Assembly (NCBI GenBank): GCA_963731455.1
Contig: CAVSVI010000005.1
Span: forward strand, 498,713-530,712
Origin: an uncultured Actinomycetota bacterium
GTDB lineage: Bacteria > Actinomycetota > Actinomycetes > Mycobacteriales > Pseudonocardiaceae
DNA: 32,000 nucleotides
Reading direction: 5' to 3'
Under the pieces are notes generated by a model. That model saw nothing but the letters and a program-made list of their open reading frames with translations, was not told the origin of the DNA and searched no databases. Shown here piece after piece: positions 6,845 to 25,537 of the stretch. How positions within the stretch are numbered: position 1 is the first letter of the stretch; the number at the start of each line of letters is the position of its first letter. Position numbers and translations under genes: made by a program.

Positions 6845-7233
6845 GCCGTCGAGACGGTGGACTGGTTGATCCCGGGCAGCTGACCGGCTCGACGGTTCGG
6901 GCAGTGTGCGCTTCTCAGCCGTTCCTGGCCACCCTCACCTCAGCCCGACGAGGTCGGGGTTGCAAGGGAAGAACCGGTACTCCTCGAACTCTCCGGACTC
7001 GGTGTAGATCACTGCGAGCGCACGGCAGGGGGGCTCACGGTGTTGAGCGGCCCTTATCTCGAAGTCTGGCGGGTCTCTCACACCTGGCAGCGGTCGCTGC
7101 CATCCGTTGTCAGTTGCGGCTATAACCGCAGCTCAGCGGGCCCCGGGTCGGCCCTGTCCTGCTGCGCGCGGGTAGGGGATGACAGACTCTCGCTCGGACA
7201 GGTGTGTCGGGACGGTTGGCGGGAGACGCGCGC

Positions 7234-8058
7234 ATGAGCAACAGGCAGGACCCCGGCGGTCCGGTGTCGGTCGACCGGACCAAGGCGAGCATCGCCCGGG
7301 TCTACGACTGCGCGCTGGGCGGCAAGGACAACTATGAGGTCGACCGCGAAGTTGTCGAGAAGCTGCGTCAAGTCGCCCCTGAGATCACGCAGTTCACCAT
7401 CGATCACCGACAGTTCCTCATCCGCGTCGCCCGGTTCCTCACCGGCGAGGCCGAGCTCGACCAGTTCCTCGACCTCGGCTCGGGCCTACCGACAGCCGAG
7501 AACACCCACCAGGTCGCGCAGCGGATCAACCCCAAGACCCGCGTGGTGTACGTCGACAACGACCCGTCGGTCGTCGCCCACGGGCGGGCGCTGCTCGAGG
7601 AGAACGAGCTCTCCCGGTTCAGTGCAGCCGACCTGACCAATCCCGACGCGGTGCTGTCGGACCCGGTCGTGTCGGGCCACCTCGACTTCACCAGGCCCAT
7701 CGGCCTGCTCCAGCTGGGCACGCTGCACCACCACGTCGGTGAGCCGGCCCCGGCCGAGATCATGCAGCGCTACATTGACGCGCTCCCCTCGGGCTCCTAC
7801 GTGGCGCTGAGCCACTTCTACGACCCGCAGGACGAGAACAGTGAGCTCGCCCGCCGCATGGAGGCCGTGTTCGTGCACAGCCCGCTAGGCAGCGGGGTCT
7901 TCCGCACCAAGTCCGAAATCCTCGCGATGCTGCCGGGACTCGAGCTCATCGACCCCGGCTTCTCGCTGCTGGTGGACTGGTGGCCGGACGGGCCGCGCCT
8001 CAAGCCCTACCTGCCGTCCCAGCGCTGCCTGGCGGGCGCGGTCGGACGCAAGCCCTGA
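7234..8058 (+). CDS. SAM-dependent methyltransferase of the actinobacterial DUF574 (Methyltransf_19) type
   Basis: N-terminal ARVYDCALGGKDNYEVDR motif, LDLGSGLP SAM-binding loop, VVYVDNDP, and the C-terminal WWPDGP...LAGAVGRKP ending typical of this family. ATG at 7234 follows GGGAG. Confidence 0.75.
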   Translation: MSNRQDPGGPVSVDRTKASIARVYDCALGGKDNYEVDREVVEKLRQVAPEITQFTIDHRQFLIRVARFLTGEAELDQFLDLGSGLPTAENTHQVAQRINPKTRVVYVDNDPSVVAHGRALLEENELSRFSAADLTNPDAVLSDPVVSGHLDFTRPIGLLQLGTLHHHVGEPAPAEIMQRYIDALPSGSYVALSHFYDPQDENSELARRMEAVFVHSPLGSGVFRTKSEILAMLPGLELIDPGFSLLVDWWPDGPRLKPYLPSQRCLAGAVGRKP

Positions 8059-8211: not shown

Positions 8212-8959
8212 ATGAGCGGCGAGGACGGGCCTCAGGCGGTCGACCCGCAGGACGCCCTCGACGCAGTGGAGGCGCTGGTGCCCGGCGCGGTAGCGCTGGC
8301 CCGCGGCAACAGGATCTCGGCTTGAACGTGTCTGCCGTTTCCTCGTCGCGGAAGCCCGCGTCACCCAGTTCCTCGACCTCGGGGCGGGCCTCCCCATCGC
8401 GGGCAACACCCACCAGGTGGTGCGCCGGCTCTCCCAGACCGCCCAGGTGATCTACGTCGACAACGACCCTGCGACGGTCTCCCACGGCCAGAGTCTGGTC
8501 GCCGACGACGCCCGCGTCTGGTTCGTCGAGGGCGACCTGAGCGACCCCGACACCGTGCTCGCGGACCCAGTCATCCGCCGGCACCTCGACTTCACCCAGC
8601 CGATGGCGTTGCTGCAGAGCGCCACCCTGCACCACCTCCCCGACGAACTGGTCGACGGCGTCATGGCCCGCTACATCGCGGCGCTCGCACCCGGCTCATA
8701 CGTAGCGCTGAGCCACCTCTGTGATCCCGGCGGCGAGGCCGGGGAGCAAGTCCGCCGCGCGCGCGGAAGTCTGCTCGGTGAGCACTTCCGTCCCCGGGCC
8801 GCGATCGAGGCGCTGCTGGCGGGCCTGGAGCTCCTGCCCTCGAGTCAGACCAGCGTCGAGGGGCTCGTACCGGTTGGGCAGTGGTGGCCCGACGGGCCCT
8901 TCGTCCAGCTCTCGGAGCTGGAGCACTGCCTGCTCGGCGCGGTCGGCCGTAAGAACTGA
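8212..8959 (+). pseudogene. Decayed tandem paralog of the DUF574 methyltransferase (N-terminal motif lost, +1 frameshift near 8285-8335)
   Basis: Frame 2 reads ...RLERVCRFLVAEARVTQFLDLGAGLP...VIYVDNDP...WWPDGP...LLGAVGRKN, colinear with 7234..8058. That frame is closed by TAG near 8283 and has no start before GTG 8417. Frame 1 (MSGEDGPQAVDP...) lacks the ARVYDxxLGGKDN block and stops at 8325. Confidence 0.55.
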
Positions 8960-9358
8960 CCACCGCTCGGCAACACACCGGCGGTTGCACCGAAGGTCTC
9001 CATCCACGACCACGAGTCGTACCGGAAAGCCCGTGCGGCCGAGGGGCCAGTGCCCGATACAAAGCGGCGCCGGCCACCGCGTCGCTGGGCAGCCGCCCAA
9101 CGATCAAGCACCCACCCGGTCCCCGCGGCCGAACCGCCAGCGGCGGGACGAAAGGATCGGCCATCGACCCCGGGAACGCACCCTCGGTCGGCGATGCGGT
9201 CGGCAAATTATGCGCGGCGTCCGGAGAGGCCCGCTGGCCGGCGGCGTCGACGGCAGGAGATGATCGCACCTCCCGATGCGTCGGTGCAGCCGATGGAGTT
9301 ACGCCGGTCTTCCTCTCGTAGTGATTCACTATGGCATTCGCGCGAGGGGGTGACTGTC

Positions 9359-10198
9359 ATGGTGGTCGGGGCGTCCCGACGGCTCGCCCTACCCAGTCGC
9401 CTGGGCGTGGTGACGGCCGCTGCCGTCCTCATGCTGTTCGCGGGCTGTGCGGGAGCCGAGGGGTCCGCGCCGTCCGGGGACGGGCTCACGTCGTCGCCGG
9501 TCGCCTCGACCGGGGCCCCGGCTGGTTCGGGGGCGCCGCAGTACCCCTGGCACACCAGCATCGCGGCGACCTCGTTCTGGGTCGGACAAGTGATCTCCGG
9601 AGCCCCGGACGGCAGCCAGGTCCTCTCGACCTACGACCCGCACTGGGAGTCGAACTACGGCGGCTGCGACGGGGTGGTCACCGGCGGACGGTGTCGAGCC
9701 GAACCGCGCACCCCGGCCAACGGGTTCTTCCCCACCGCGATGACCCCGCGCCAGAACCCGTTCTACCTGGATCTGCCCTTCGACGACGTCCACAACGCCA
9801 CCGCTCGCGCCGAACGAGCCAGGGTGATCCCCTGGGCCCACGACCCTCGCTATGCCGACCAGCTCGCGCACGGCAGCCTGATGAAGAATCACTGGGTCGA
9901 GCTCAGCACTGCCGGTCACACCTGCTACGGGCAGATCGAGGACGCCGGACCGACGATCTACGACGACGCACGGTACGTGTTCGGCACCCATGACGAGCGC
10001 CCGGCCAACAAGAAGATCAACAACGCGGGCCTGGACGTCTCCCCGGCGCTCAACGGCTGCTTGGCGTTCGCCCACGGCTACAACAGCGACCAGGACCGGG
10101 TGAACTGGCGGTTCGTCGACGACACCGCCGTCCCGGCCGGCCCCTGGACCAGGATCGTCACCACCAACCCGGCCATCCGATCGGCGGCCACGGGCTAG
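9359..10198 (+). CDS. Secreted lipoprotein, function unknown; the C-terminal region may have a double-psi beta-barrel (RlpA/expansin-like) fold
   Basis: MVVGASRRLALPSRLGVVTAAAVLMLFAGCAG is a signal peptide with lipobox. ATG at 9359 follows GAGGGGG. The C-terminal CYGQIEDAGP...AGLDVSPALNGCLAF loosely resembles DPBB proteins, and that part is a weak inference. Confidence 0.6.
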   Translation: MVVGASRRLALPSRLGVVTAAAVLMLFAGCAGAEGSAPSGDGLTSSPVASTGAPAGSGAPQYPWHTSIAATSFWVGQVISGAPDGSQVLSTYDPHWESNYGGCDGVVTGGRCRAEPRTPANGFFPTAMTPRQNPFYLDLPFDDVHNATARAERARVIPWAHDPRYADQLAHGSLMKNHWVELSTAGHTCYGQIEDAGPTIYDDARYVFGTHDERPANKKINNAGLDVSPALNGCLAFAHGYNSDQDRVNWRFVDDTAVPAGPWTRIVTTNPAIRSAATG

Positions 10199-10327
10199 GT
10201 CCGGAGCGAGCAGGCTCGCGGACGGGCGCCTCAATCACTTCGAGTAATCGGGTATAACCCACTTTCACCACATGAGTCACTCTAGTATCACTTGACCCGT
10301 GGTCCTTGATCGTTGTTACTGTCTGCA

Positions 10328-10383
10328 GCTCGATCACCCGTGACGTGAGAGGGCGGCAGGCCGTGGGCGAACTCAGGGGTGAC
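10328..10383 (+). repeat. Left copy of a 56-bp inverted-repeat pair (partner at 16339-16394)
   Basis: GCTCGATCACCCGTGACGTGAGAGGGCGGCAGGCCGTGGGCGAACTCAGGGGTGAC matches the reverse complement of 16339-16394 at 52 of 56 positions. It ends 17 nt before GTG 10401. Confidence 0.9.
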
Positions 10384-10400
10384 GCGGTGGAGCGGGGCCG

Positions 10401-11630
10401 GTGACCACGACCGAGCCGCGCCATCGCCCGCGGTCCACGGCGGGCGGCGTGGAGCGCGCCGGACGCTGGGGCGGCCCGGACGCGGTGACGCTCGCCCCGC
10501 GGTGGGGCCGACCCGTCGACCCACCGACCCGTCCCGATGGGCCGGCCCACCTAGCGCGGCCACCGGCCTCGAGGGCGGCCGCCGCGGCTCCGGTGCGGCC
10601 GTCGAGGCCGTCGCCGACCTCGACGCGACCGCGTCCACGGCCGGCGCCCACCATCCCGCTGGGCGGACCGCCCGATTCGCGGGTGGTCCGGGCGCTCCCC
10701 GTGGCCCGACCGCGACGGGCCCGTCCGGTCCGCCATGTCCTGCTGGTGGCCTGGCTCGGGTCGCTGCTCGTCGTCCTGGCGGCCGCCACGGCTGCGCCGC
10801 CGCCCCGACCGTCCGCCGCTCCGGCCACGTCGTCCGTCCGGTCACCGGGTCTGTCGGACACGGCCACGACGCCGTCCCCGTCGGCCGCGATCGACGAGCT
10901 GGTGGATCCCGCGTCGACCGGCCACGTCTCGATCGCGGCACTCGACCTGGCCACCGGCCGGTCGTTCGCCTACGAGTCCGGCGCACCGGTCCACACCGCC
11001 AGCGTCGTCAAGCTCGACGTGCTCGAGACCCTGCTGCTCCAGACCCAGGACGGCGGCCGCAGGCTCACACCGGAAACGGCACGATCGGCCACCCAGATGA
11101 TGGAGAACAGCGACAACGAGGCCACGACCCGGCTGTGGGGCGTGGTCGGTGGAGCCCAGGGGGTCGCCGCAGCGAACGTCCGTCTCGGCGCCCACTGCAC
11201 CCACCTCGACGACCAGCACTGGGGGACGAGCACCACGTGTGCCGCCGACCAGGTCGCGCTGCTCGGCGCGCTCGTGCGGCCCGGCCCCCTCGCACCCGCC
11301 GCCCGCTCCTACGCCGCCAACCTCCTGACGCATGTCGAGGACGACCAGCGGTGGGGGATCTCGGCCGCGGCCGACCCCGGCGCCGCAATCGGCATCAAGA
11401 ACGGCTGGCTGCCCCTCGACGACGACGACGGGCGCTGGATCGTCAACAGCGTCGGGGTGACCATGGTCGCCCACGAGCCGGTGCTGCTCGCCGTGCTCAC
11501 CGAGCATCAACCGAGCGAGGAAGCCGGTATCGAGCTGGTCGAAGCCCTCGCCCGCCCGGCGGCACGTGCCGTCGTCACCGGCGCCGACCCGCCGGTCACG
11601 TGGTCGCGGGAAAGGAGCATGTGCTGCTGA
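10401..11630 (+). CDS. Membrane-anchored serine hydrolase with a class-A beta-lactamase fold (Pro/Arg-rich N-terminal tail, one TM helix); start uncertain
   Basis: SxxK as TASVVK, SDN as ENSDNEAT, KxG as IKNGW. TM segment VLLVAWLGSLLVVLAAA. GTG 10401 follows GGAG with an 8-nt spacer, but downstream GTG starts such as VVRALPVA are also possible. Confidence 0.65.
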   Translation: MTTTEPRHRPRSTAGGVERAGRWGGPDAVTLAPRWGRPVDPPTRPDGPAHLARPPASRAAAAAPVRPSRPSPTSTRPRPRPAPTIPLGGPPDSRVVRALPVARPRRARPVRHVLLVAWLGSLLVVLAAATAAPPPRPSAAPATSSVRSPGLSDTATTPSPSAAIDELVDPASTGHVSIAALDLATGRSFAYESGAPVHTASVVKLDVLETLLLQTQDGGRRLTPETARSATQMMENSDNEATTRLWGVVGGAQGVAAANVRLGAHCTHLDDQHWGTSTTCAADQVALLGALVRPGPLAPAARSYAANLLTHVEDDQRWGISAAADPGAAIGIKNGWLPLDDDDGRWIVNSVGVTMVAHEPVLLAVLTEHQPSEEAGIELVEALARPAARAVVTGADPPVTWSRERSMCC

Positions 11631-11695
11631 TGCGCTTACGTCGGGCTTCCTTTCGGCGTGGTCCACTACGGCCTTCCGGGGCAGGGGTGGAGGTC

Positions 11696-13162
11696 ATGGT
11701 GGGTGTGGTGCTGCGGCGGGTCGCCCGCCGCGGGCGCGCCGGCTGGGTGGCGGTCGCGGCGGTGCTGGCGTTGTGTGTGGGCTGCGCGGGCTCCGGGGGA
11801 GCCGCGCCCTCCGGCGGTGGGCTGACGTTGCCACCGGTCGCCTCGACGGGTGCGCCGACATCGCCGGCCCCGGGCGGGGGTGGGCTGCGGCCCGGTGGTG
11901 ACTGGTTGACCTATCATGGGGATCCCACCCGTGCCGGGTACGACCGGGACGGACCTGACCCGGCCAGCCCCGCGGTGGCCTGGCAGGCGCCGTTGGACGG
12001 CAAGGTGTACGCCAGCCCCCTGGTCGTGGGCGGTCAGGTGATCGCGGCCACCGAGAACGGGTCGCTCTACGGGCTGGACGCGGCCTCCGGCGCGGTGCGC
12101 TGGCGCACCCATCTCGCCGACCCGGTGTCGGGCAGCGCCCTGCCGTGCGGCGACATCGACCCGGTGGGGATCACCAGCACCCCGGTCGCGGATCCGGCGA
12201 GCGGACTGGTCTACGCCGTCACCACCCAGAGCGCTGCCGGGGGTGGGGTCGAGCACGTGCTGTGGAGCGTGGATGCCGCCACCGGGCAGGTCCGGGCCCA
12301 GCGCCCGGTCGACGCACCCGGGGCCGACCCGGCCACCCACCTCCAGCGTGGAGCGCTGCTGCTGGCCAACCACACCGTCTACGTCGCCTACGGCGGGAAC
12401 TACGGTGACTGTGGCCAGTACCTCGGCCGGGTCGTCGGCGTACCGACCACCGGCAACGCACCGCCGGCCACGTTCGCGGTCCCCACCACCCGCGAGGGCG
12501 GCATCTGGGCTGCGGCCGGCGCCGCCGCGCTCCCGAGCGGAGACCTGCTGGTCACCACCGGAAACGGTGACGCCGAGAGCGGTCCGTGGGATCACAGCGA
12601 CTCGATCCTGCGGTTGAGCCCGCAGCTCGCGCTGCTCGACGGCTTCGCCCCGACCCAATGGGCCCAGGAGAACTCCGAGGACGCCGACCTCGGCTCGACC
12701 GGCCCGGTGATCCTCCCCGGGGGCAACGAGGTGATCGCGGCGGGCAAGGGCGGCGGGATCTACCTCGCCGAGATCGCCGCGCTCGGTGGGGTCGGTGGAC
12801 AGCGAGCCCAACTGGACAACTGCGAGGCCTACGGCGGCGGTGCCGCGGCACCCGTGAGCGGCGGCGGCGCGGTGGCCTACCTGCCCTGCAGCACCGGACT
12901 GCTCCAAGTTCGGGTGCCCGGCCCCGGCCAGCTGGTCCGCGGCTGGCAAGCGCCCAGCCAGATCACCGGCTCGCCGATCGTGGTCGGAACCACGGTCTGG
13001 TCGCTGCAACAAGACGGCGTCCTCGACGCCCTCGACGCGGGTAGCGGCGCATTGCGCGCCAGTCTCTCGGTTGGCGACGCAAACCGCTTCGCCACCCCTG
13101 CGGTCAGCGGCAACGCGCTCTACCTACCCACCAACCACGGCATCACCGCCGTGCAGATGTGA
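11696..13162 (+). CDS. PQQ-like (BamB-type) beta-propeller repeat lipoprotein
   Basis: MVGVVLRRVARRGRAGWVAVAAVLALCVGCAG is a signal peptide with lipobox. Repeated propeller blades such as VYASPLVVGGQVIAATENGSLYGLDAASGAVRWR follow. The first 439 codons of track ORF 10379..13162 are an out-of-frame read-through of the preceding gene. Confidence 0.8.
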   Translation: MVGVVLRRVARRGRAGWVAVAAVLALCVGCAGSGGAAPSGGGLTLPPVASTGAPTSPAPGGGGLRPGGDWLTYHGDPTRAGYDRDGPDPASPAVAWQAPLDGKVYASPLVVGGQVIAATENGSLYGLDAASGAVRWRTHLADPVSGSALPCGDIDPVGITSTPVADPASGLVYAVTTQSAAGGGVEHVLWSVDAATGQVRAQRPVDAPGADPATHLQRGALLLANHTVYVAYGGNYGDCGQYLGRVVGVPTTGNAPPATFAVPTTREGGIWAAAGAAALPSGDLLVTTGNGDAESGPWDHSDSILRLSPQLALLDGFAPTQWAQENSEDADLGSTGPVILPGGNEVIAAGKGGGIYLAEIAALGGVGGQRAQLDNCEAYGGGAAAPVSGGGAVAYLPCSTGLLQVRVPGPGQLVRGWQAPSQITGSPIVVGTTVWSLQQDGVLDALDAGSGALRASLSVGDANRFATPAVSGNALYLPTNHGITAVQM

Positions 13163-13171
13163 AGCGCTCCA

Positions 13172-13193
13172 CCCCGGCCTTTCGGGGCCGGGG
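13172..13193. terminator. GC-rich hairpin between convergent genes (bidirectional terminator candidate)
   Basis: CCCCGGCC (13172-13179) pairs with GGCCGGGG (13186-13193) around loop TTTCGG. It lies between the stop at 13162 (+) and the stop at 13226 (-). Confidence 0.55.
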
Positions 13194-13225
13194 CGTCACC
13201 GCGTGGACGGCTTCCGACCGTCGGC

Positions 13226-13930
13226 TCAGCTGTCGTTCTGTGGCTTCGGCAGGTAGGGGGTCAGCGCGTTGGCGAGGGCGCGCAGGTCCCGTGTCTGTAG
13301 CAGGAGGTCGGCAGGGCCGGTGAACTCGGCGACAAGGCCCTCGCCCGAGGTGAGCGATCGAAACAGGCTCCGCGTCGCCTTACGCATGGCGTAGTGGGAG
13401 TCGGCGGGCCACGCGACGAGGTGCCCGGTGTCGACGAGGTGCCGCTCGCCCGGTGCGAGGGTGCGATGGGCGAGGGCGCCGAAGGCGGACAGCAGCACGA
13501 CGCCGGTGCCTGAGGCGCGGAGGACGAAGGTGCTGTTGGAGGCGAAGAGCGACTTCGCTCCGCCCCACCCGGTCTCGATGTCGATGCCGTCGGATGAGGC
13601 GAGGTAGCCGTGCGCGGCAATGGCGTAGGGCCGCCCGGTGAGCTCGACGGGCACGATGTCGCCGGGCCCGGGCGGGGCGAGGACGAGATCCCCTGGACCC
13701 GAGAACCGCGAGACGAACCCGGAGCGCCCGCCGGCGGTGCGCTTGACCGCGCCCCAGAGCCCGCCCTCCATCGAGGAGTCGAGGGTGACGTCTCCGCCCA
13801 TCGAGACCATGGCCCCGGACTCGGCGCGCACCGCATGGCCGTCTGGCAGCGTGAGGGTGGCAAGGGCGGCCATCGGGCGGAAGTCGATGCGGTAGTCGAG
13901 TCCGTGGGCGCGGCCGTGGGCGGGAAGCAT
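13226..13930 (-). CDS. AIM24-family protein (DUF124)
   Basis: LDYRIDFRP...TLTLPDGHAVRAESGAMVSMGGDVTLDS...GGLWGAVKR...GFVSRFSGPGDLVLAPP...GEGLVAEFTGPADLLLQTRD fits the AIM24/TIGR00266 pattern as I know it. Confidence 0.75.
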   Translation of the reverse strand: MLPAHGRAHGLDYRIDFRPMAALATLTLPDGHAVRAESGAMVSMGGDVTLDSSMEGGLWGAVKRTAGGRSGFVSRFSGPGDLVLAPPGPGDIVPVELTGRPYAIAAHGYLASSDGIDIETGWGGAKSLFASNSTFVLRASGTGVVLLSAFGALAHRTLAPGERHLVDTGHLVAWPADSHYAMRKATRSLFRSLTSGEGLVAEFTGPADLLLQTRDLRALANALTPYLPKPQNDS

Positions 13931-14100
13931 CGTGACTGCGGGATCCGTGTGCTCAGCCTCTCGCCCCAGGGCTCCTTCTCGTCAGTGGAAGATCATGCCA
14001 GCAGAATGGGTCCTCACGGGGTGCAGCGAGCACCAACCGGACGACCACCAGCCGCCCTCGTCGGAGTGGTGCCCCTCTCCGTGCCGGTTATTGGAGCAGG

Positions 14101-14463
14101 TCAGGCACTGGCCGCGTCGTGCCGCGCGCGTACCGCGTCCAGGCGGATAGCCAGTTCGGTCTCGTCGATGACGTTCCGGGTGACCAGCGAGTGCGCGAGG
14201 GCGACGAGCTGATTCTCCGGGTAGGGCAGTGAGGTGTACACCTCGCGGGAGATGCGGTCCTCGTCGTTGCGACGGGTGAGCAGGGGCAGCGCCGCGCCCT
14301 CCTCGTCGAGCGCGTCGCACATCGCATCTAGGCTGGATTTCCAGGGCGGCACCGGATTGGTGACGCGGTACTGCGCGGCCATCCGATCCCAGGTCTGTTC
14401 GCGCTCGACGATGTGCTCCAGCGTCCGCACGCGGACGGTCGCGATGTCGTGGTCGGTCGTCAT
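14101..14463 (-). CDS. Nitrile-hydratase-family accessory (activator or metallochaperone) protein, beta-subunit-related
   Basis: A small protein (120 aa) encoded 16 nt after the alpha-subunit gene. Its C-terminal LVALAHSLVTRNVIDETELAIRLDAV resembles the helical region of beta subunits and of NhhG/P14K-type activators. Position and size match known operons. Confidence 0.55.
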   Translation of the reverse strand: MTTDHDIATVRVRTLEHIVEREQTWDRMAAQYRVTNPVPPWKSSLDAMCDALDEEGAALPLLTRRNDEDRISREVYTSLPYPENQLVALAHSLVTRNVIDETELAIRLDAVRARHDAASA

Positions 14464-14479
14464 GTCGTGTTCCCGTGGA

Positions 14480-15208
14480 CTAGTCGCTCGTCACCGGACG
14501 GATCGCGGGATGCAGCGGGCGGGTCGCGTTCGAGGTGACCCCCGGCTTGGGCAGGGCGACGCCGATCAGGCAATCGCGGGTCACGATCTCCGCGAGCTGC
14601 TCCTCGCTCCACCCCTCCGTACCATCCGGCCGGACCGGAAGCACCATGAACCTGTGCTTCGAGTTGGAGTCTTCGACGCGGACCTCGACGTCCTCGGACA
14701 GATAGAGACCGAATTCCGCGAGGACCTGGCGCGGCCAGCGCACGATGCGGCGACGGTAGTTCGGCGTCCGGTACCACTCCGGTGACATGCCCAGTATCGG
14801 GCGGGGATAGCAGGAGCACAGGGTGCAGACGATCACGTGATGCACCGTCGGGGTGTCCTCGAGCACCTCGAACGCGGTGAAGTCACTGGGAGTGCCGAAT
14901 CCGGTCGGATGTAGCCAGTCGATGCCCAATTCCCGGGAGGCGGCGATGGCATCGTCCAGCGCCAACCGCCTGAATTCCGGATCGAGCCAAGCCCTGGCGA
15001 CGAACCGGGACCCGGCGGCCGGCTCGAGCTGCTCCACATGCTCGGTATAGCGCCGGTGATCCTCGGCGGTGAACAGGCCCTTCTCGATCGCGAGCTCCCG
15101 CAGAGCGATCTCCAGCACCTCGAAGTCGGTGATCTCCTCGACCATCGGTGCCGTGCCGGCATGCTCGTGCGTGTCGTGCCCCGTCCCGCCCGGATCCGTC
15201 TCCGCCAT
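14480..15208 (-). CDS. Cobalt-type nitrile hydratase alpha-family subunit, thiocyanate-hydrolase-gamma-like (242 aa)
   Basis: Metal-claw motif VCTLCSCYPRP with Cys at residues 128, 131 and 133 and Arg at 136. A His-rich N-terminus (GHDTHEH) is followed by PMVEEITDFEVLEIALRELAIEKGLF. The CTLCSC (Thr) signature indicates the Co type. Confidence 0.85.
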   Translation of the reverse strand: MAETDPGGTGHDTHEHAGTAPMVEEITDFEVLEIALRELAIEKGLFTAEDHRRYTEHVEQLEPAAGSRFVARAWLDPEFRRLALDDAIAASRELGIDWLHPTGFGTPSDFTAFEVLEDTPTVHHVIVCTLCSCYPRPILGMSPEWYRTPNYRRRIVRWPRQVLAEFGLYLSEDVEVRVEDSNSKHRFMVLPVRPDGTEGWSEEQLAEIVTRDCLIGVALPKPGVTSNATRPLHPAIRPVTSD

Positions 15209-15260
15209 CCCGTCTCCCTCCTCGTCCCCGCGGCTGGTGCCTGCGGCTGGTGCCCTTGCG

Positions 15261-16094
15261 CTAGCCCGCTGGTTGGAGCCACCGCTCCGAGATCTCGGCC
15301 TGGAGCGTGTCGTTCGGACAGCCCGTGTACGCCTCCCACAGGTCAGCCATCCGGAAGCGCACGATGTAGAACCACTCCGACTTCTGGTCTTCCCGGTCGA
15401 ACGCCTCGTCCTCCGGCGCCAGGCTCTCGTAGGAGACCTTGGCGACCCTTCCGCTCGCGCCCCTCAGGTATTCCTGGGTGCGTGTGTAGAAGATCGTCGG
15501 TAGCTCGCGCACGAGCACCACATCGCCGACCGCGAACTTGGGTGCGCCCGCCGTGCCGGCGAAGCATTGCGGATCGCCCTTGCCGACCGCATCCAGGTGA
15601 TGACGGTTTCGGGCGACCGCCTCGGTGTTCCCGGTGGTGCGGGGCGCGGCGTCGATGGGACCGCCGGTCCCGCCGGCGTAACGATCCCGGACCTCGCTCA
15701 CCCGCTCGATCAGCTCGCCGAGCGTGATGTGCCGCTTCTCGACCAGGCAACGGGCGATGGCCCACAGCCAGCGGCCGTAATAGGGCAGGCCGAGATAGTT
15801 GGTCCGTCCGAGATCGACGTTGCCGAGCCTTCTGCGTTCCTCCGACGTCCAGATGCCCCGCCAGCCCAGGACCTCACAGGTGACGAACGTGTTGAGCTCC
15901 CACTCCTCCTCCTCCTTGTCCTCGAACAAGGCGGGGGCGTCCGGCTCACCGCCGACGTCGTGCGGCGTCTTCATGTAGGCCTGGAACGCTCCGTGATCGA
16001 CCTGATCCGGGTACGTCCAGTCCTGGACGCGGTGAAGCGCCACGCGCAGCTGGCTCGAAAGATCGCCCAGGACCGAGTTACCCACGACCGCCAC
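15261..16094 (-). CDS. Nitrile hydratase beta-family subunit (277 aa from GTG 16094; alternative ATG start at 15974)
   Basis: PHDVGGE near the N-terminus, acidic patch DKEEEEWELNTF, PYYGRWLWA, and C-terminal FAVGDVVLVR...YLRGASGRVAKV...FYIVRFRMADLWE...WLQPAG. Third-position GC stays at about 80% through the 40 codons upstream of ATG 15974, which favours the long form. Confidence 0.8.
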   Translation of the reverse strand: MAVVGNSVLGDLSSQLRVALHRVQDWTYPDQVDHGAFQAYMKTPHDVGGEPDAPALFEDKEEEEWELNTFVTCEVLGWRGIWTSEERRRLGNVDLGRTNYLGLPYYGRWLWAIARCLVEKRHITLGELIERVSEVRDRYAGGTGGPIDAAPRTTGNTEAVARNRHHLDAVGKGDPQCFAGTAGAPKFAVGDVVLVRELPTIFYTRTQEYLRGASGRVAKVSYESLAPEDEAFDREDQKSEWFYIVRFRMADLWEAYTGCPNDTLQAEISERWLQPAG

Positions 16095-16338
16095 CCCGCT
16101 GGAAGAACCGTCTCATGCCTCCAAATGGAGGATCAGGCTAGCGTCGATCACCCCCTCCGGGAAGTAGTTGACCTCGGCTGCGGGACCCGAGCCTCCGTCT
16201 CGGTCGACCCCACGCGCGGACGTCGGTGCGAGCGGGGGCGCCTTGGTCGTCGCGCGGTTCCACCGTGGCCGAGCTGCGGTGGAGGCTCCGCGCAGGAGCC
16301 GGTGCTGTCGGCCCAACCCGGCGTGCAAGCGGATCGGT

Positions 16339-16394
16339 GTCACGCCTGAGTTCGCCCACGGTCTGCCGACCTCGCACGTCACGGGTGATCGAGC
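16339..16394 (-). repeat. Right copy of the 56-bp inverted-repeat pair (partner at 10328-10383)
   Basis: The reverse complement reads GCTCGATCACCCGTGACGTGCGAGGTCGGCAGACCGTGGGCGAACTCAGGCGTGAC. On the minus strand it lies about 245 nt upstream of the beta-subunit GTG at 16094. Confidence 0.9.
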
Positions 16395-16497
16395 GCGGCA
16401 CCCGGGCGGGTGGTCGCCTGGCAGCCTTCAACCCGCCGGACGTGGCCGGGCGCGGCGTGACATGCCGAGCGCGGGCTGGCCTGCGAGGATTGCAGGT

Positions 16498-16665
16498 ATG
16501 TCACGGACAGCTCGGCAATGGGTCGGAGCCGTCGCGCTGCTGGCGCTGGTTGCCGCGATGGTCTACTTCGCCATGCAACGTGACACCGGTATCACAGTCA
16601 TACTGGTCGCCGTGGTTCTCCTCGCCGCAGTCGCCGGCGCGATCCTGGTGTCGCGGAAGGAATGA
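16498..16665 (+). CDS. Small two-TM membrane protein (55 aa), hypothetical
   Basis: MSRTARQWVGAVALLALVAAMVYFAMQRDTGITVILVAVVLLAAVAGAILVSRKE has two hydrophobic helices. ATG at 16498 follows GAGGA with an 8-nt spacer. Confidence 0.45.
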   Translation: MSRTARQWVGAVALLALVAAMVYFAMQRDTGITVILVAVVLLAAVAGAILVSRKE

Positions 16666-16938
16666 CCGATGGGAGCGATCTGGTAGGCCCCGCTATCAAG
16701 ACGTGGGCCGAGTCGAGCTCCCGAGCGGGCGGGGACGGCGCGGACAACGACTGCTGCCTGGGCCGCCCAGTGGTTGCTCGGTCCGACGGGTCGCCGTCCA
16801 GAGCGTGGTCGGGTCGGAAGGTCCGGGCGTAAGCACCAGCAAGGTCGCCGGCGCCATCTTTCGGTACTCGAGCGATCCCGATCGTGGACGATGTCGACCG
16901 TCCGGCTCGTACACATTCTCGGCCGCTGGTCTGGAGTA

Positions 16939-17769
16939 TCAGGCCGGCTTGCGGCCCCATGCGGTGATCATCGGTGCGAGCATGAGGTCCAGGTCGCCGT
17001 GCGCGAGGTTCGCGAGATGCGTCTCGATCTCCTGGGGCGTCGCCAGTTGCGCGGCCAAGAGTTGGTCGCGGACGTGCTGGACCGTGGCCGCCTCCAGGAC
17101 CGCGCACTCGCGTGAGGCGATGGGGAAGTACGCCTCGGCGCGAACGTCGGTCAGGTCTGACTCACGCAGCAGCCGGGGCAGCGTGCGACCGTATGCGAGG
17201 TCCGCCCCGCGCTCGGCCATCAGTGTTCGGATCCGAGTGCGTAGCCGGTTCGCGAGCGCTTCGTCGGGGCCGCGTTCGTCCGGGCAGGCGAGTGGCTGCA
17301 GGGCCGGGTCCCCGTCCTCGATCACCAGCCATCCGCCCGGCCGGAGGGCATCGATCATGACTCGCATCGCGGCCGCGCGATCCGCGAGGTGGACCAGGAC
17401 CAGCCGGGCGTGGACCAGGTCGAACGTCTCCGCCGGCGGTGGGTCGCGGATCACGTCGTGTCCCCGTACCTCGAGCGCGCCACCGGCCGCGGGCTCGGCC
17501 CACGACACGTCGATGTCTGTGGCCGGCACCCGTCCGTTGCTCCCCACGCGCTCCGCCAGGCCGCGCGGCACCGAGACGCCGCCGGCACCGACCTCCCAGC
17601 ACCGCCATCCCTCACCGAGCCCCAGGGCGTCGAGGTGACGGAAGGTCCATGGGTCGAACATCTCGGCGAGCGCCACGAACCGTTCGCCAGCCTCCGGGCG
17701 ACGGTTGTCGAGCAGATAGCGGTTCACCGGACCAGCGTGGCCCGTCAACGTTGAGGTGCAGTCAGCCAT
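16939..17769 (-). CDS. Class I SAM-dependent methyltransferase
   Basis: Motif I as CWEVGAGGVSVPRGLA, then ATDID, FDLVHARLVLVHL and LRPGGWLVIED. ATG at 17769 (MADCTST...) is preferred over the track start at 17886. Confidence 0.75.
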   Translation of the reverse strand: MADCTSTLTGHAGPVNRYLLDNRRPEAGERFVALAEMFDPWTFRHLDALGLGEGWRCWEVGAGGVSVPRGLAERVGSNGRVPATDIDVSWAEPAAGGALEVRGHDVIRDPPPAETFDLVHARLVLVHLADRAAAMRVMIDALRPGGWLVIEDGDPALQPLACPDERGPDEALANRLRTRIRTLMAERGADLAYGRTLPRLLRESDLTDVRAEAYFPIASRECAVLEAATVQHVRDQLLAAQLATPQEIETHLANLAHGDLDLMLAPMITAWGRKPA

Positions 17770-23005: not shown

Positions 23006-23752
23006 TTATTGGGGCATGACGAAGCCGCCGTCGACGGCCACCACTTGCCCGGTGATGAACCCGGCCCGGTCGGAGAGGAGGTAGGCGACGAGATCGGCGA
23101 CGTCCTGGGGTGTCTGCTCCCGAGCGAGCACCCGGTTGTCGGCGTAGAGCCGATAGCGCTCGTCCGGTACCGACTCGGTGGCCTCGACGCGGACCAGCCC
23201 GGGCGCGACCGCGTTGACCCGTACCCCGTGCGGCCCGGCGTCGCGCGCCATGCCCCGGGTCATCGCCAGCACGGCGCCCTTGGAACCGACGTAGTGCACC
23301 AGTCGCGGCGACCCGTAGATCGCCGCGTCGGAGGCCATGTTGACGATCGCGCCCGCGCCCTTGACGAGCATCTGGGGCACGAGTCGGGCAGCCACCTGCC
23401 AGGTGCCCAAGGCATTGACCGTGAGCACTCGGCGGAAGGCCTCGACGTCGAGCTCCCAGAAGGTGCGGCCGCCGACTCCGTCGGCCAGCGCCGCGTTGTT
23501 GACCAGTGCGTCGGCCCCGCCCAGCTCCTCGGTGCGCGCGGCCAGCCGGGCCACCGCATCCGGATCAGTGACGTCGACGGCCAGTGTGTGCACCTCGGTG
23601 CCGTCCGCTGCCAGCTCGGCGGCGGTCTTGTCCAGCAACTCCTCGCGCACGTCGACGAGTACGAGCCGGGCGCCCTCGGCAGCGAGCGTGCCGGCGATCA
23701 CCTGACCGAGGCCGCGTGCCGCGCCGGTCACGACGGCGAGCCGGCCGCTCAT
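23006..23752 (-). CDS. Short-chain dehydrogenase/reductase (SDR, FabG-like)
   Basis: TGAARGLG, NNAA and YVGSKGAV (YxxxK) motifs; 248 aa. Confidence 0.85.
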   Translation of the reverse strand: MSGRLAVVTGAARGLGQVIAGTLAAEGARLVLVDVREELLDKTAAELAADGTEVHTLAVDVTDPDAVARLAARTEELGGADALVNNAALADGVGGRTFWELDVEAFRRVLTVNALGTWQVAARLVPQMLVKGAGAIVNMASDAAIYGSPRLVHYVGSKGAVLAMTRGMARDAGPHGVRVNAVAPGLVRVEATESVPDERYRLYADNRVLAREQTPQDVADLVAYLLSDRAGFITGQVVAVDGGFVMPQ

Positions 23753-24537
23753 CGCCGGCCCCAGAACTCGAGCATCGCCGCGGCCACGTCGTCCGGGCGC
23801 TCGCTCACGCCCGCGTGACCGGCGCCGGTCAGGCGCTGCAGCGACGCACCGGGGATACCGTCGGCGAGCTGCCGGGAGGGCACTTCTCCGGTCACGCGGT
23901 CGTGCTCGCCGACCAATACCAGCGTCGGCGCCGTGATCGACGAGAGCAGTGGGGTGTTGTCGGTGGTGGCCATGAACTCCGCCGCGGCGCGGTAGCCCGG
24001 CAGCCGGACCTCGGCCATGGCGGCTCGGACCGCTGCGGCGGTCGTGGGGTCACACCCGGGCGCGACGAGGATCGGCGCCCGGGCGGTGGCGAACGCATCG
24101 GCCCCTCGGGCCGCGAGATCCTCGACGCGGGCGCGCATCGCGGCGGCCGCGTCCGGGCGGCCACCGGAGCCAGGGGTGGAATCGGCCAGGACCAGCGACC
24201 GCACGCGTTCCGGGTACCGGGCCGCGACCAGCGTGGCGATCACTCCACCCCAGGAGGTGCCGACCAGGTCGACCTCGTCGATTCCGAGCTGGTCGAGGAT
24301 CGCGAGCACCCGGGTCGGATAGTCGGTGTCGGCGGGACCGGCCGGGTCGATGGACTCGCCGTATCCGGGCGCGTCCCAGCACATCGCCCGCAGGCCGTGC
24401 GTGGCCAGTAACGCCGCCACGGCGGCGAACGAACGGGCGTTGCCGCCGATCCCGTGCAGCAGCAGCACGGTGCGGCCGTGCCCCTGCTCGGTCAGGCAGA
24501 CGCCGGCGGCGACCCGGCGGCGGGCGGTCACGGGCAT
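23749..24537 (-). CDS. Alpha/beta hydrolase (meta-cleavage-product hydrolase / enol-lactonase type)
   Basis: LLLHGIGGN oxyanion region, nucleophile elbow GTSWGG, and C-terminal GAGHAG His region. ATGA overlap with the downstream SDR. Confidence 0.8.
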   Translation of the reverse strand: MPVTARRRVAAGVCLTEQGHGRTVLLLHGIGGNARSFAAVAALLATHGLRAMCWDAPGYGESIDPAGPADTDYPTRVLAILDQLGIDEVDLVGTSWGGVIATLVAARYPERVRSLVLADSTPGSGGRPDAAAAMRARVEDLAARGADAFATARAPILVAPGCDPTTAAAVRAAMAEVRLPGYRAAAEFMATTDNTPLLSSITAPTLVLVGEHDRVTGEVPSRQLADGIPGASLQRLTGAGHAGVSERPDDVAAAMLEFWGRR

Positions 24538-24538
24538 C

Positions 24539-25537
24539 TCAGGCCTCGACTCCCAGTCCGGGCAGGACGCCGTTGTCGGCTTCGCTGGGCAGGAAGTAGT
24601 CCGGCTTGGCGTCGACGAGTGCTCGCGCTCCGGGGTCCGGGAAGCCGGCCATGGCCGAGCGCACCGAGGTGCTCGGCGGGCCCGCGGTGCGCCACTGGTC
24701 GGACAGCTCCGGGGTGCGGCGCCAGGTGCGGCACAGCCACGAGTCCTCGTCGACCTGGATGACCTCGGAGGTGTACTCGCAGACCAGCTGGGCCGGGTCG
24801 GTGTAGTAGGAGAAGGTGTTGTCGCCCGGCCCGTGCCGGCCCGGGCCCCACTGCGGGGAGATGCCGTGCACCTTGAGGCTGCCGATCCCGCGCATGAAGT
24901 GATCCACCGAGGTCATCTCGTAGGCCACGTGGTTCACCGATGTCCACGGGGCTTGGTTGAAGGCGATGACGTGGTGTTCCGGGTTGCAGCGCAGGAACGA
25001 CATCTGATGCTCCGACCAGTCGGAGACCCGCATCCCGAGGACCTGGGTGTAGAAGGCGGTGGCCCGGTCGATGTCGACCGTGTTCAGCACGACGTGGGCC
25101 AGCCTGCGCGGCAGTGCGGGATAGCCCTGGTCGTCGTGTCGGACCACCGCGTGCACCTCCGCGGCCAGCTCGACGATCCGACCCTCGGGATCGACGAGCG
25201 CCAGGCGGTAACCCCCCGCCGCGTCGTCGGTACGGCCCGGCTCGCGCAGCAGCGGAATCCCCCGGTGCTCCAGCTCGCGCGCCGCCTCGTCGACCTCCCG
25301 CGGGGTGGCCACCGAGAAGGTGATGCCGCCGAGGGAATTCTGCGGGGAAGCCTGCAGCTTGAGGATGTGGTGCTCCTCGCCGGTGCCGCGCAGCCAGAAT
25401 CGCTCCGTGTCGGACTCGCTGAGCCCCAGCCCCCACACTTCGTGGTAGAAGTCCTTGGAGGTGGCGGGGTCGGGCACCCCGAGGGTGACCGAGCGCAGGC
25501 CCCGCAGGCGGACGACGGGGCTGTCGGTGTAGTGCAT
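24539..25537 (-). CDS. Two-domain VOC-family extradiol ring-cleavage dioxygenase (type I, catechol 2,3-dioxygenase-like)
   Basis: LRSVTLGVPD...FYHEVWGL and LAHVVLNTVD...FYTQVLGMRVSD are duplicated VOC modules. It also has HHVIAF, VNHVAYE and PGRHGPGDNTFSYYTDP. The start at ATG 25537 (MHYTDSPV) is inside track ORF 24539..26122. Confidence 0.8.
   Translation of the reverse strand: MHYTDSPVVRLRGLRSVTLGVPDPATSKDFYHEVWGLGLSESDTERFWLRGTGEEHHILKLQASPQNSLGGITFSVATPREVDEAARELEHRGIPLLREPGRTDDAAGGYRLALVDPEGRIVELAAEVHAVVRHDDQGYPALPRRLAHVVLNTVDIDRATAFYTQVLGMRVSDWSEHQMSFLRCNPEHHVIAFNQAPWTSVNHVAYEMTSVDHFMRGIGSLKVHGISPQWGPGRHGPGDNTFSYYTDPAQLVCEYTSEVIQVDEDSWLCRTWRRTPELSDQWRTAGPPSTSVRSAMAGFPDPGARALVDAKPDYFLPSEADNGVLPGLGVEA

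Follow-up and report, generated by a model that had tools for sequence, protein, structure and literature searches.

Termination–reinitiation coupling at NUGA overlaps has been demonstrated for the uPPE2-ppe2 pair of Mycobacterium tuberculosis (PMC11260477), and coupling of the NUGA type is the subject of a survey by Huber et al. (2019; PMC6728339, as cited in PMC11260477). Here we describe a candidate for this mechanism in the leader of a serine hydrolase gene, within a stretch of 32,000 nt (termed the window) from an uncultured member of the Pseudonocardiaceae (contig CAVSVI010000005.1, positions 498,713 to 530,712). The leader is also the left arm of a 56 nt inverted repeat that brackets about 6 kb of DNA, with a second operon of the nitrile hydratase (NHase) family facing the right arm. 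An initial annotation of the window had offered three readings for this repeat, namely a leader or operator shared by the two operons, the terminal repeats of a cargo module that lacks a transposase, and a substrate for inversion of the bracketed segment. We consider it likely that the left arm is the native leader of the hydrolase gene and that the right arm is an eroding, functionless and inverted partial copy of it, with no mobilisation or inversion of the 6 kb segment. On this view the repeat is a product of ordinary genome wear, being neither a mobile element nor a DNA switch nor a riboswitch.

The inverted repeat and its place in the window

The arms of the repeat, at positions 10328–10383 and 16339–16394, are 56 nt long, match at 52 of 56 positions (93% complementary) and are separated by 5955 nt, as the initial annotation had reported. 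The pair (I1) is the best inverted repeat of the window by a wide margin, the runners-up reaching at most 44 nt at 70–88% identity. A search pattern carrying N at the four variable sites matches the window twice, at the two arms, and finds nothing in 100 shuffles that preserve dinucleotide composition. The longest run of perfect identity between the arms is 20 nt. Similarity ends as abruptly as had been noted before, for in local alignments the 100 nt flanks on either side score no higher than shuffled controls. The flanks are CTGCA on the left and GCGGC on the right, with no direct repeat, which agrees with the earlier failure to see a target-site duplication. The window has a G+C content of 71%, and profiles of G+C content and skew across it reveal no compositional break at either arm.

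The geometry of the locus was likewise described correctly. The two arms are oriented alike with respect to the operons that they face; the left arm ends 17 nt before the GTG at 10401 that opens the hydrolase gene, and the right arm lies 245 nt before the GTG at 16094 that opens the gene for the NHase beta subunit. Pfam assignments agree that the repeat encloses two convergent units. A coding reading of the repeat was considered and rejected: one codon phase holds three of the four mismatches, yet this is expected in about one of three cases by chance, and the G+C content of third codon positions (GC3) around the right arm is of the non-coding type.

Searches for further copies were also made in sequence collections. 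A scan of a genome collection with the pattern GCTCGATCN{6,10}GTGNGAGN{11,16}TGGGCG, which proved too loose, returned more than 119 chance matches, none of which resembled the element among the matches listed. Two pattern scans of metagenome contigs gave no match, and the collection scanned evidently lacks even sequences of the L004 type described below.

Probable promoter, leader and upstream ORF of the hydrolase gene at the left arm

Orthologues of the hydrolase were found through their protein sequences on contigs of four other lineages (L004/L005, L127, L003 and L006, the last being Actinomycetospora sp. TBRC 11914). The DNA upstream of every orthologue aligns with positions 10260–10420 of the window. 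In this leader region, which occupies the same position upstream of the gene, L004/L005 match the window at 89% identity over 161 nt and L003 does so at 76% over 164 nt. The genes for the PQQ, AIM24 and NHase proteins that accompany the hydrolase gene in the window are not found beside it in any of the orthologous loci; L006 does have an NHase locus, split and unrelated, at a distance of about 9 kb upstream of its hydrolase gene.

Several blocks are conserved in all five lineages. These include a −35-like TTGAYC, a TGATC block, an extended −10 element TGT-TACTGK, the sequence CGATCAYC located 8 nt past the −10 element, a Shine–Dalgarno-like GAGAGG or GGGAGG, and the motif RTG-GGC-GRA. The CGATCACC block is likewise shared by every orthologous leader. 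The TTGACC and TACTGT hexamers that had been proposed as a possible promoter are present at their reported positions with a spacer of 19 nt, and both are conserved in the orthologous loci. A simple scan for the sigma-70 consensus does not call them. Nevertheless, from their conservation and from the TANNNT rule for actinobacterial −10 elements, we regard 10292–10322 (+ strand) as the probable promoter of the hydrolase gene, composed of TTGACC (10292–10297), the spacer block TGATCG (10307–10312) and the extended −10 element TGT-TACTGT (10314–10322).

The repeat begins 5 nt past the −10 hexamer (the range given being 5–7 nt), and transcription probably starts at about position 10328. On this prediction the left arm (10328–10383, + strand) comprises the transcription start, a 33 nt 5′ untranslated region (UTR) with the Shine–Dalgarno site GAGAGG, and the GTG at 10361 that starts an upstream open reading frame (uORF) together with 7 codons. 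We also observed that TGATCG (10307–10312) and CGATCA (10331–10336) form an inverted pair of 6 bp sequences with 18 nt between them, one on each side of the −10 element and the predicted transcription start. L004, L127 and L006 have a TGATC...GATCA pair as well, and that of L003 is weaker. This pair may be an operator, and its second half alone is present in the right arm.

The putative uORF (10361–10402, + strand) has 13 codons and the peptide sequence MGELRGDAVERGR. Its stop codon, TGA at 10400–10402, overlaps the GTG start of the main ORF at 10401 as GTGA. The corresponding uORFs of L004 (MGGLRRGAVERRR) and L127 (MDEPGRVDSGRGR) also have 13 codons, and that of L006 has 17. Thus, a short ORF with its own Shine–Dalgarno site and a 4 nt stop/start overlap is conserved among the orthologues, with the GTGA overlap found in four of the five lineages (window, L004/L005, L127 and L006). 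In L003 the uORF is fused in frame to the main ORF. The uORF opens with RTG-GGC-GRA (MGE...), and its peptide is weakly conserved.

The start of the main ORF is fixed by an N-terminus, M/V-T-T/S-T..PR.R...WGGP..VTL, that is common to six orthologues (alignment A1). The corresponding database entry, P0121 (294 aa), has its start 115 codons further downstream than GTG 10401 and so omits the region 10401–10745 (+ strand). Because the longer N-terminus (MTTTEPR...GRWGGPDAVTL) is conserved in the six orthologues, the deposited gene call appears to be too short.

Promoter and leader together are 89, 72, 72 and 56% identical to those of L004, L127, L003 and L006 respectively, and the third codon positions of the gene are 83, 70, 66 and 61% identical. 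Promoter and leader are therefore conserved about as well as third codon positions, with no sign of an unusually constrained 56 nt unit. It had been argued that a conserved stretch of this length is far more than a transcription factor site needs. This argument loses its force, since the length is explained by shared ancestry through duplication rather than by selection on a 56 nt functional unit. Taken together, we read the left arm as the conserved, working 5′ leader of the serine hydrolase gene.

Three alleles at the site of the right arm

To examine the right arm among close relatives, alleles were retrieved by means of a small membrane ORF (16498–16665) that lies beyond it and whose identical protein is encoded on eight metagenome contigs. 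Six of these contigs span the junction towards the NHase beta gene, and in all six this gene stands beside the small ORF at one position and in one orientation. BLAST comparisons and a multiple alignment distinguish three alleles at the site, within flanks that are 94–97% identical. In allele C, carried by L129, L130, L131 and L133, a 56-mer that matches the right arm of the window at 53 of 56 positions is followed by 109 nt more, and about 55 extra nt are present on the other side. Allele B is that of the window, which lacks the 109 nt next to the arm. Allele A, found in L132 and L135, has no copy at all. The segment 16324–16435 of the window, which includes the right arm, is missing there according to the BLAST breakpoints and the multiple alignment, and about 27 nt of other sequence are found at the site.

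The additional 109 nt of allele C reveal the origin of the arm, as they are homologous to positions 10384–10487 of the window, on the far side of the left arm. The 248 nt patch of allele C aligns with 10328–10487 over 161 nt at 83% identity (E 7.6e-42). Four indels interrupt this alignment, and the GTGA overlap is lost through one of them. Homology thus runs from the leader into the hydrolase coding sequence, and the intact reading frame has been lost, as would be expected of a partial duplicate. In our interpretation, an inverted partial duplicate covering at least 161 nt from the 5′ end of the hydrolase gene was once present, of which the first 56 nt remain as the right arm (16339–16394, − strand), and the abrupt inner end of the arm is the scar of a 109 nt deletion.

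The flanks allow a tentative order of events. Their identities on the two sides of the site are 97.3 and 95.5% between the window and allele A, 96.2 and 94.5% between the window and allele C, and 95.0 and 93.9% between alleles A and C. As the window and allele A form the closest pair, midpoint rooting places the copy in the common ancestor of the three, from which it would have been lost secondarily in allele A.

The right copies carry signs of decay. Their Shine–Dalgarno site is substituted, GAGAGG having become GCGAGG or GAAAGG. No frame of the region 16113–16427 around the right arm has GC3 of the coding type, and a 1 nt indel between close relatives breaks any ORF that reads through the site. 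A tblastn comparison of the hydrolase, PQQ and upstream lipoprotein sequences with 16050–16950 detected no gene remnant beyond the 56 nt. The right arm is most likely a relic without function.

Search for a structured RNA

The initial annotation could not match the element to a riboswitch, and an Rfam search of the 32 kb bears this out, with no match at the gathering level. At permissive E-values the regions around both arms give chance-level matches (E 0.16 or worse) to models of snoRNA, CRISPR, sRNA and lncRNA families. Single-sequence folds have z-scores of −1.16, −0.53 and +1.37 and indicate no significant structure. RNAalifold applied to the five leaders, a sample of limited power, yields −8.3 kcal/mol, and its covariation term, at +1.84, amounts to a penalty. 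The Rfam, fold and covariation checks therefore give no indication of a structured leader RNA, known or novel.

The NHase operon and its promoter-proximal block

Positions 14079–16165 (− strand) form a block that contains the NHase-family operon and 71 nt upstream of it, including a −10-like TAGCCT at 16140–16135. A locus of Actinomycetospora chibensis (L136) matches the block at 89% identity over 2089 nt, and homology ends at both limits. In A. chibensis it likewise consists of the three NHase genes and the 71 nt upstream, with TACTCT in place of TAGCCT, and has other neighbours. The repeat element is absent from the A. chibensis locus, and a search of the closest NHase beta loci among the metagenome contigs (L001 and L002) also found it absent. 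The right arm is situated about 200 nt upstream of the 71 nt promoter-proximal block that is conserved with A. chibensis and, by this comparison, appears not to be part of what moves with the NHase operon.

In A. chibensis and the two metagenome lineages L001 and L002, the block lies between an adh_short gene and a GtrA-like gene; in the lineage of the window it lies between the AIM24 gene and the small membrane ORF. The differing neighbours and the sharp ends of homology point to relocation of the operon as a block of about 2.1 kb.

The operon encodes an accessory protein (14101–14463; Pfam), an alpha subunit of the thiocyanate hydrolase gamma type (14480–15208; Pfam and NCBIfam) and a beta subunit (15261–16094; Pfam and NCBIfam), all on the − strand. 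Against the NCBIfam models, the alpha-type subunit scores 379 bits for thiocyanate hydrolase gamma, above the equivalog cut-off of 291, and 214 bits for nitrile hydratase alpha, below the cut-off of 250. The beta-type subunit is a single fused protein of 277 aa. Given the two scores and the fused beta subunit, the operon is better named as thiocyanate-hydrolase type. The alpha subunit clusters at 90% identity with those of A. chibensis, A. straminea and sp. NBC_00405, and these protein neighbours assign the window to the genus Actinomycetospora.

The NHase promoters of L136 (9056–9126) and L001 (about 9900–10000) have the form CACTTCCCGG...GTGATCGACGTTACTCT, that is, CACTTCCCGG..GTGATC(G/C)ACGTTAC(T/G)CT, the corresponding region of the window being 16135–16165 (− strand). 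The hydrolase promoter, CACTTGACCC...TTGATCGTTGTTACTGT (10289–10322, + strand), resembles them, including the TGATCG spacer block. This likeness, which is independent of the 56 bp repeat, may reflect a shared regulator or a shared sigma factor specificity.

Directly upstream of the NHase beta gene there is also a CCTCC-ATTT-GGAGG hairpin (16101–16125, − strand), which overlaps a 12-codon ORF (ATG 16114, MRRFFQRGGGRG) running across GTG 16094. The hairpin is not conserved, its second arm being GGACT in L130.

Other genes in and around the bracketed segment

The hydrolase gene (10401–11630, + strand), whose product has the conserved start MTTTEPR..., encodes a membrane-anchored serine hydrolase of the beta-lactamase fold and the Beta-lactamase2 family (PF13354, E 5e-14). 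Inside the segment it is accompanied by a gene for a PQQ_2/BamB-like beta-propeller lipoprotein (11699–13162, + strand; PF13360, E 8e-15; lipobox LCVGC), and the NHase genes by one for a protein of the AIM24/TIGR00266 family (13226–13930, − strand; PF01987, E 2e-51; NCBIfam TIGR00266). The small ORF beyond the right arm (16498–16665, + strand) is predicted to encode a 55 aa membrane protein with two helices and has a weak Pfam match to DUF3792. In the window ORFs that were scanned with Pfam, which exclude those at about 23300–25500 and a few small ones, there is no recombinase, integrase or transposase.

Another duplication of 5′ ends is found within the same 8 kb. A direct repeat of 237 nt (D1, 70% identity; 9284–9520 and 11621–11857) arises from the common 5′ ends of the PQQ lipoprotein gene and of an unannotated lipoprotein gene upstream of the left arm, which has a probable start at about 9362. 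The two share about 78 nt of upstream sequence, the signal peptide, the lipobox and an APSGxGLTxxPVASTGAP linker, and the remaining parts of the proteins are unrelated. Further upstream, tandem Methyltransf_19 genes (7204–8058 and 8294–8959, + strand) are accompanied by repeats D2 and D9, spaced 901 nt apart at 71–73% identity. From its first start codon, the second gene matches profile positions 90–267 only and may be truncated or mis-started.

Discussion

The observations suggest the following course of events. The hydrolase gene would be transcribed from about 10328 by the TTGACC...TGT-TACTGT promoter, giving an mRNA with a 33 nt 5′ UTR and a Shine–Dalgarno site, and its main ORF would probably be translated by termination–reinitiation coupling after the 13-codon uORF. 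An ancestor of these strains would have acquired an inverted copy of at least 161 nt from the start of the gene, comprising leader, uORF and about 30 codons without the promoter, in the intergenic DNA ahead of the relocated NHase operon. Since then this copy would have been eroding by deletion, with 109 nt lost in the genome of the window and the whole patch lost in a sister lineage.

Several points weigh against this account. The polarity of the alleles depends on midpoint rooting of three taxa, the long allele was compared with the left arm of the window and not with the hydrolase locus of its own strains, and the count of copies covers the 32 kb window rather than the rest of the source genome or whole Actinomycetospora genomes. 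The 56 nt part differs from the left arm by 9% and the adjacent 105 nt of the long allele by 17% plus indels, although the difference is not significant. Moreover, the copy starts within a few nt of the predicted transcription start, keeps the Shine–Dalgarno site and the start codon, and points at the NHase operon, none of which is needed in a purely accidental patch. Random breakpoints in particular would not be expected to leave out the promoter with a boundary so close to the predicted transcription start, a feature that also sets the copy apart from other gene-fragment relics. The coincidence of the two starts may be due to chance or may be a hint of an RNA template. Because the copy begins at about the transcription start and carries none of the well-conserved promoter, one could imagine that cDNA derived from the 5′ end of the hydrolase mRNA was inserted into a nearby break, creating a bacterial ‘processed’ gene fragment, or, in a milder variant, that some strains retain the relic because it modulates NHase expression, serving as a decoy or as a start site. 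We judge these ideas highly improbable.

The reading in which both arms are a shared leader or operator survives for the left arm, which is a conserved leader of the hydrolase gene, and fails for the right arm, which is not a conserved leader of the NHase operon. Its functional version, whereby the right arm is kept to place the NHase operon under hydrolase-type control at the RNA or DNA level, through a common regulator or an arrangement of the uORF type, draws on the equal orientation of the arms and on the retention of a Shine–Dalgarno-like site, a GTG start and the CGATCACC block in the right arm. The CACTTsmCC...TGATCGnnGTTACTnT architecture common to the hydrolase promoter and the NHase promoters of L136 and L001 could also mean a common regulator, but it is independent of the repeat. 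Set against these features, the right arm is dispensable: L132 and L135 share the NHase junction and lack the arm, which A. chibensis, L001 and L002 lack as well. It also lies far upstream of the conserved promoter-proximal block (about 200 nt), has no promoter similarity ahead of it, carries a mutated Shine–Dalgarno site in both right-copy lineages, sits at a locus of repeated deletions and shows no conserved RNA structure. Since close relatives do without the arm, co-regulation through the relic is unlikely.

Readings in which the segment moves or flips as a unit fare worse. Inversion by RecA would swap the hydrolase promoter onto the NHase operon, and the arms are suitably inverted, 93% identical and placed inside transcribed leaders, so that an exchange between them would amount to a promoter swap. 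However, all six junction-spanning contigs of the population have the NHase beta gene beside the small ORF, the right arm is decaying by deletion and no site-specific recombinase is found among the scanned ORFs of the window. In addition, the longest perfect run of 20 nt does not exceed the minimal efficient processing segment that is usual for RecA systems. Such an inversion is very unlikely. That the arms are the terminal repeats of a MITE-like (miniature inverted-repeat transposable element) or composite module, lacking a transposase and carrying both operons as cargo, we find scarcely credible in spite of their inverted, terminal placement and abrupt ends. Being part of the conserved expression signals of the hydrolase gene, the left arm accompanies that gene in loci with unrelated neighbours and nothing else of the module, and the NHase operon is found at one junction whether the right arm is there or not. 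The inner end of the right arm appears to be a deletion scar of 109 nt, and the NHase block has different homology limits of its own (14079–16165). Target-site duplications, a compositional break, and a transposase or recombinase among the scanned ORFs are all lacking. A comparison of strains for the presence, absence or inversion of the segment, which the initial annotation had proposed, indicates that it is not a unit: the hydrolase gene and left arm occur without the other genes, and the NHase operon keeps its junction in relatives that lack the right arm.

The partial copy of a gene leader that we favour carries a caution, in that a long, near-perfect inverted repeat around a tidy set of genes gives the impression of a mobile element or a switch, and comparison within a population resolves it into a gene leader and a decaying partial copy. 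The three alleles upstream of a thiocyanate-hydrolase-type operon in near-identical strains illustrate how fast such relics erode.

Comparison with known systems

MITEs and invertible promoter segments of the fim or hin type resemble the locus in having a pair of inverted repeats with abrupt ends. They differ from it in that one arm here is a conserved gene leader, and in that there is no target-site duplication, no recombinase in the scanned ORFs and no second orientation. Inverted duplications produced at staggered breaks or by template switching are similar in that a short inverted duplicate of breakpoint-proximal sequence brackets a segment of several genes. In the present case, however, the intact hydrolase gene keeps its original promoter and coding junctions, which the simple staggered-break model does not predict, and the junction-spanning contigs of relatives reveal no inverted arrangement.

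For the left arm, the closest parallel is NUGA coupling, with which it has in common a short out-of-frame uORF, a Shine–Dalgarno site belonging to the uORF, and a UGA overlapping the main GUG, in four of five lineages, the fifth having an in-frame fusion. The coupling is predicted for the hydrolase gene, whose main ORF has a weak Shine–Dalgarno-like GGAG of its own in some lineages, and no riboswitch or other sensor was found in its leader by Rfam, folding or RNAalifold. With their conserved promoter, leader and uORF with GTGA overlap, the serine hydrolase genes of Actinomycetospora represent a clean candidate for termination–reinitiation outside the mycobacteria.

For the right arm, the closest parallel is the class of gene-fragment relics that arise by partial segmental duplication and are worn down by a bias towards deletion. 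The copy is unlike these in being inverted and 6 kb from its source. It is like them in starting near a transcription start and running into the coding region, in its frame-breaking indels, in its location in non-coding DNA, and in the independent deletions in sister lineages that leave it polymorphic for presence and absence.

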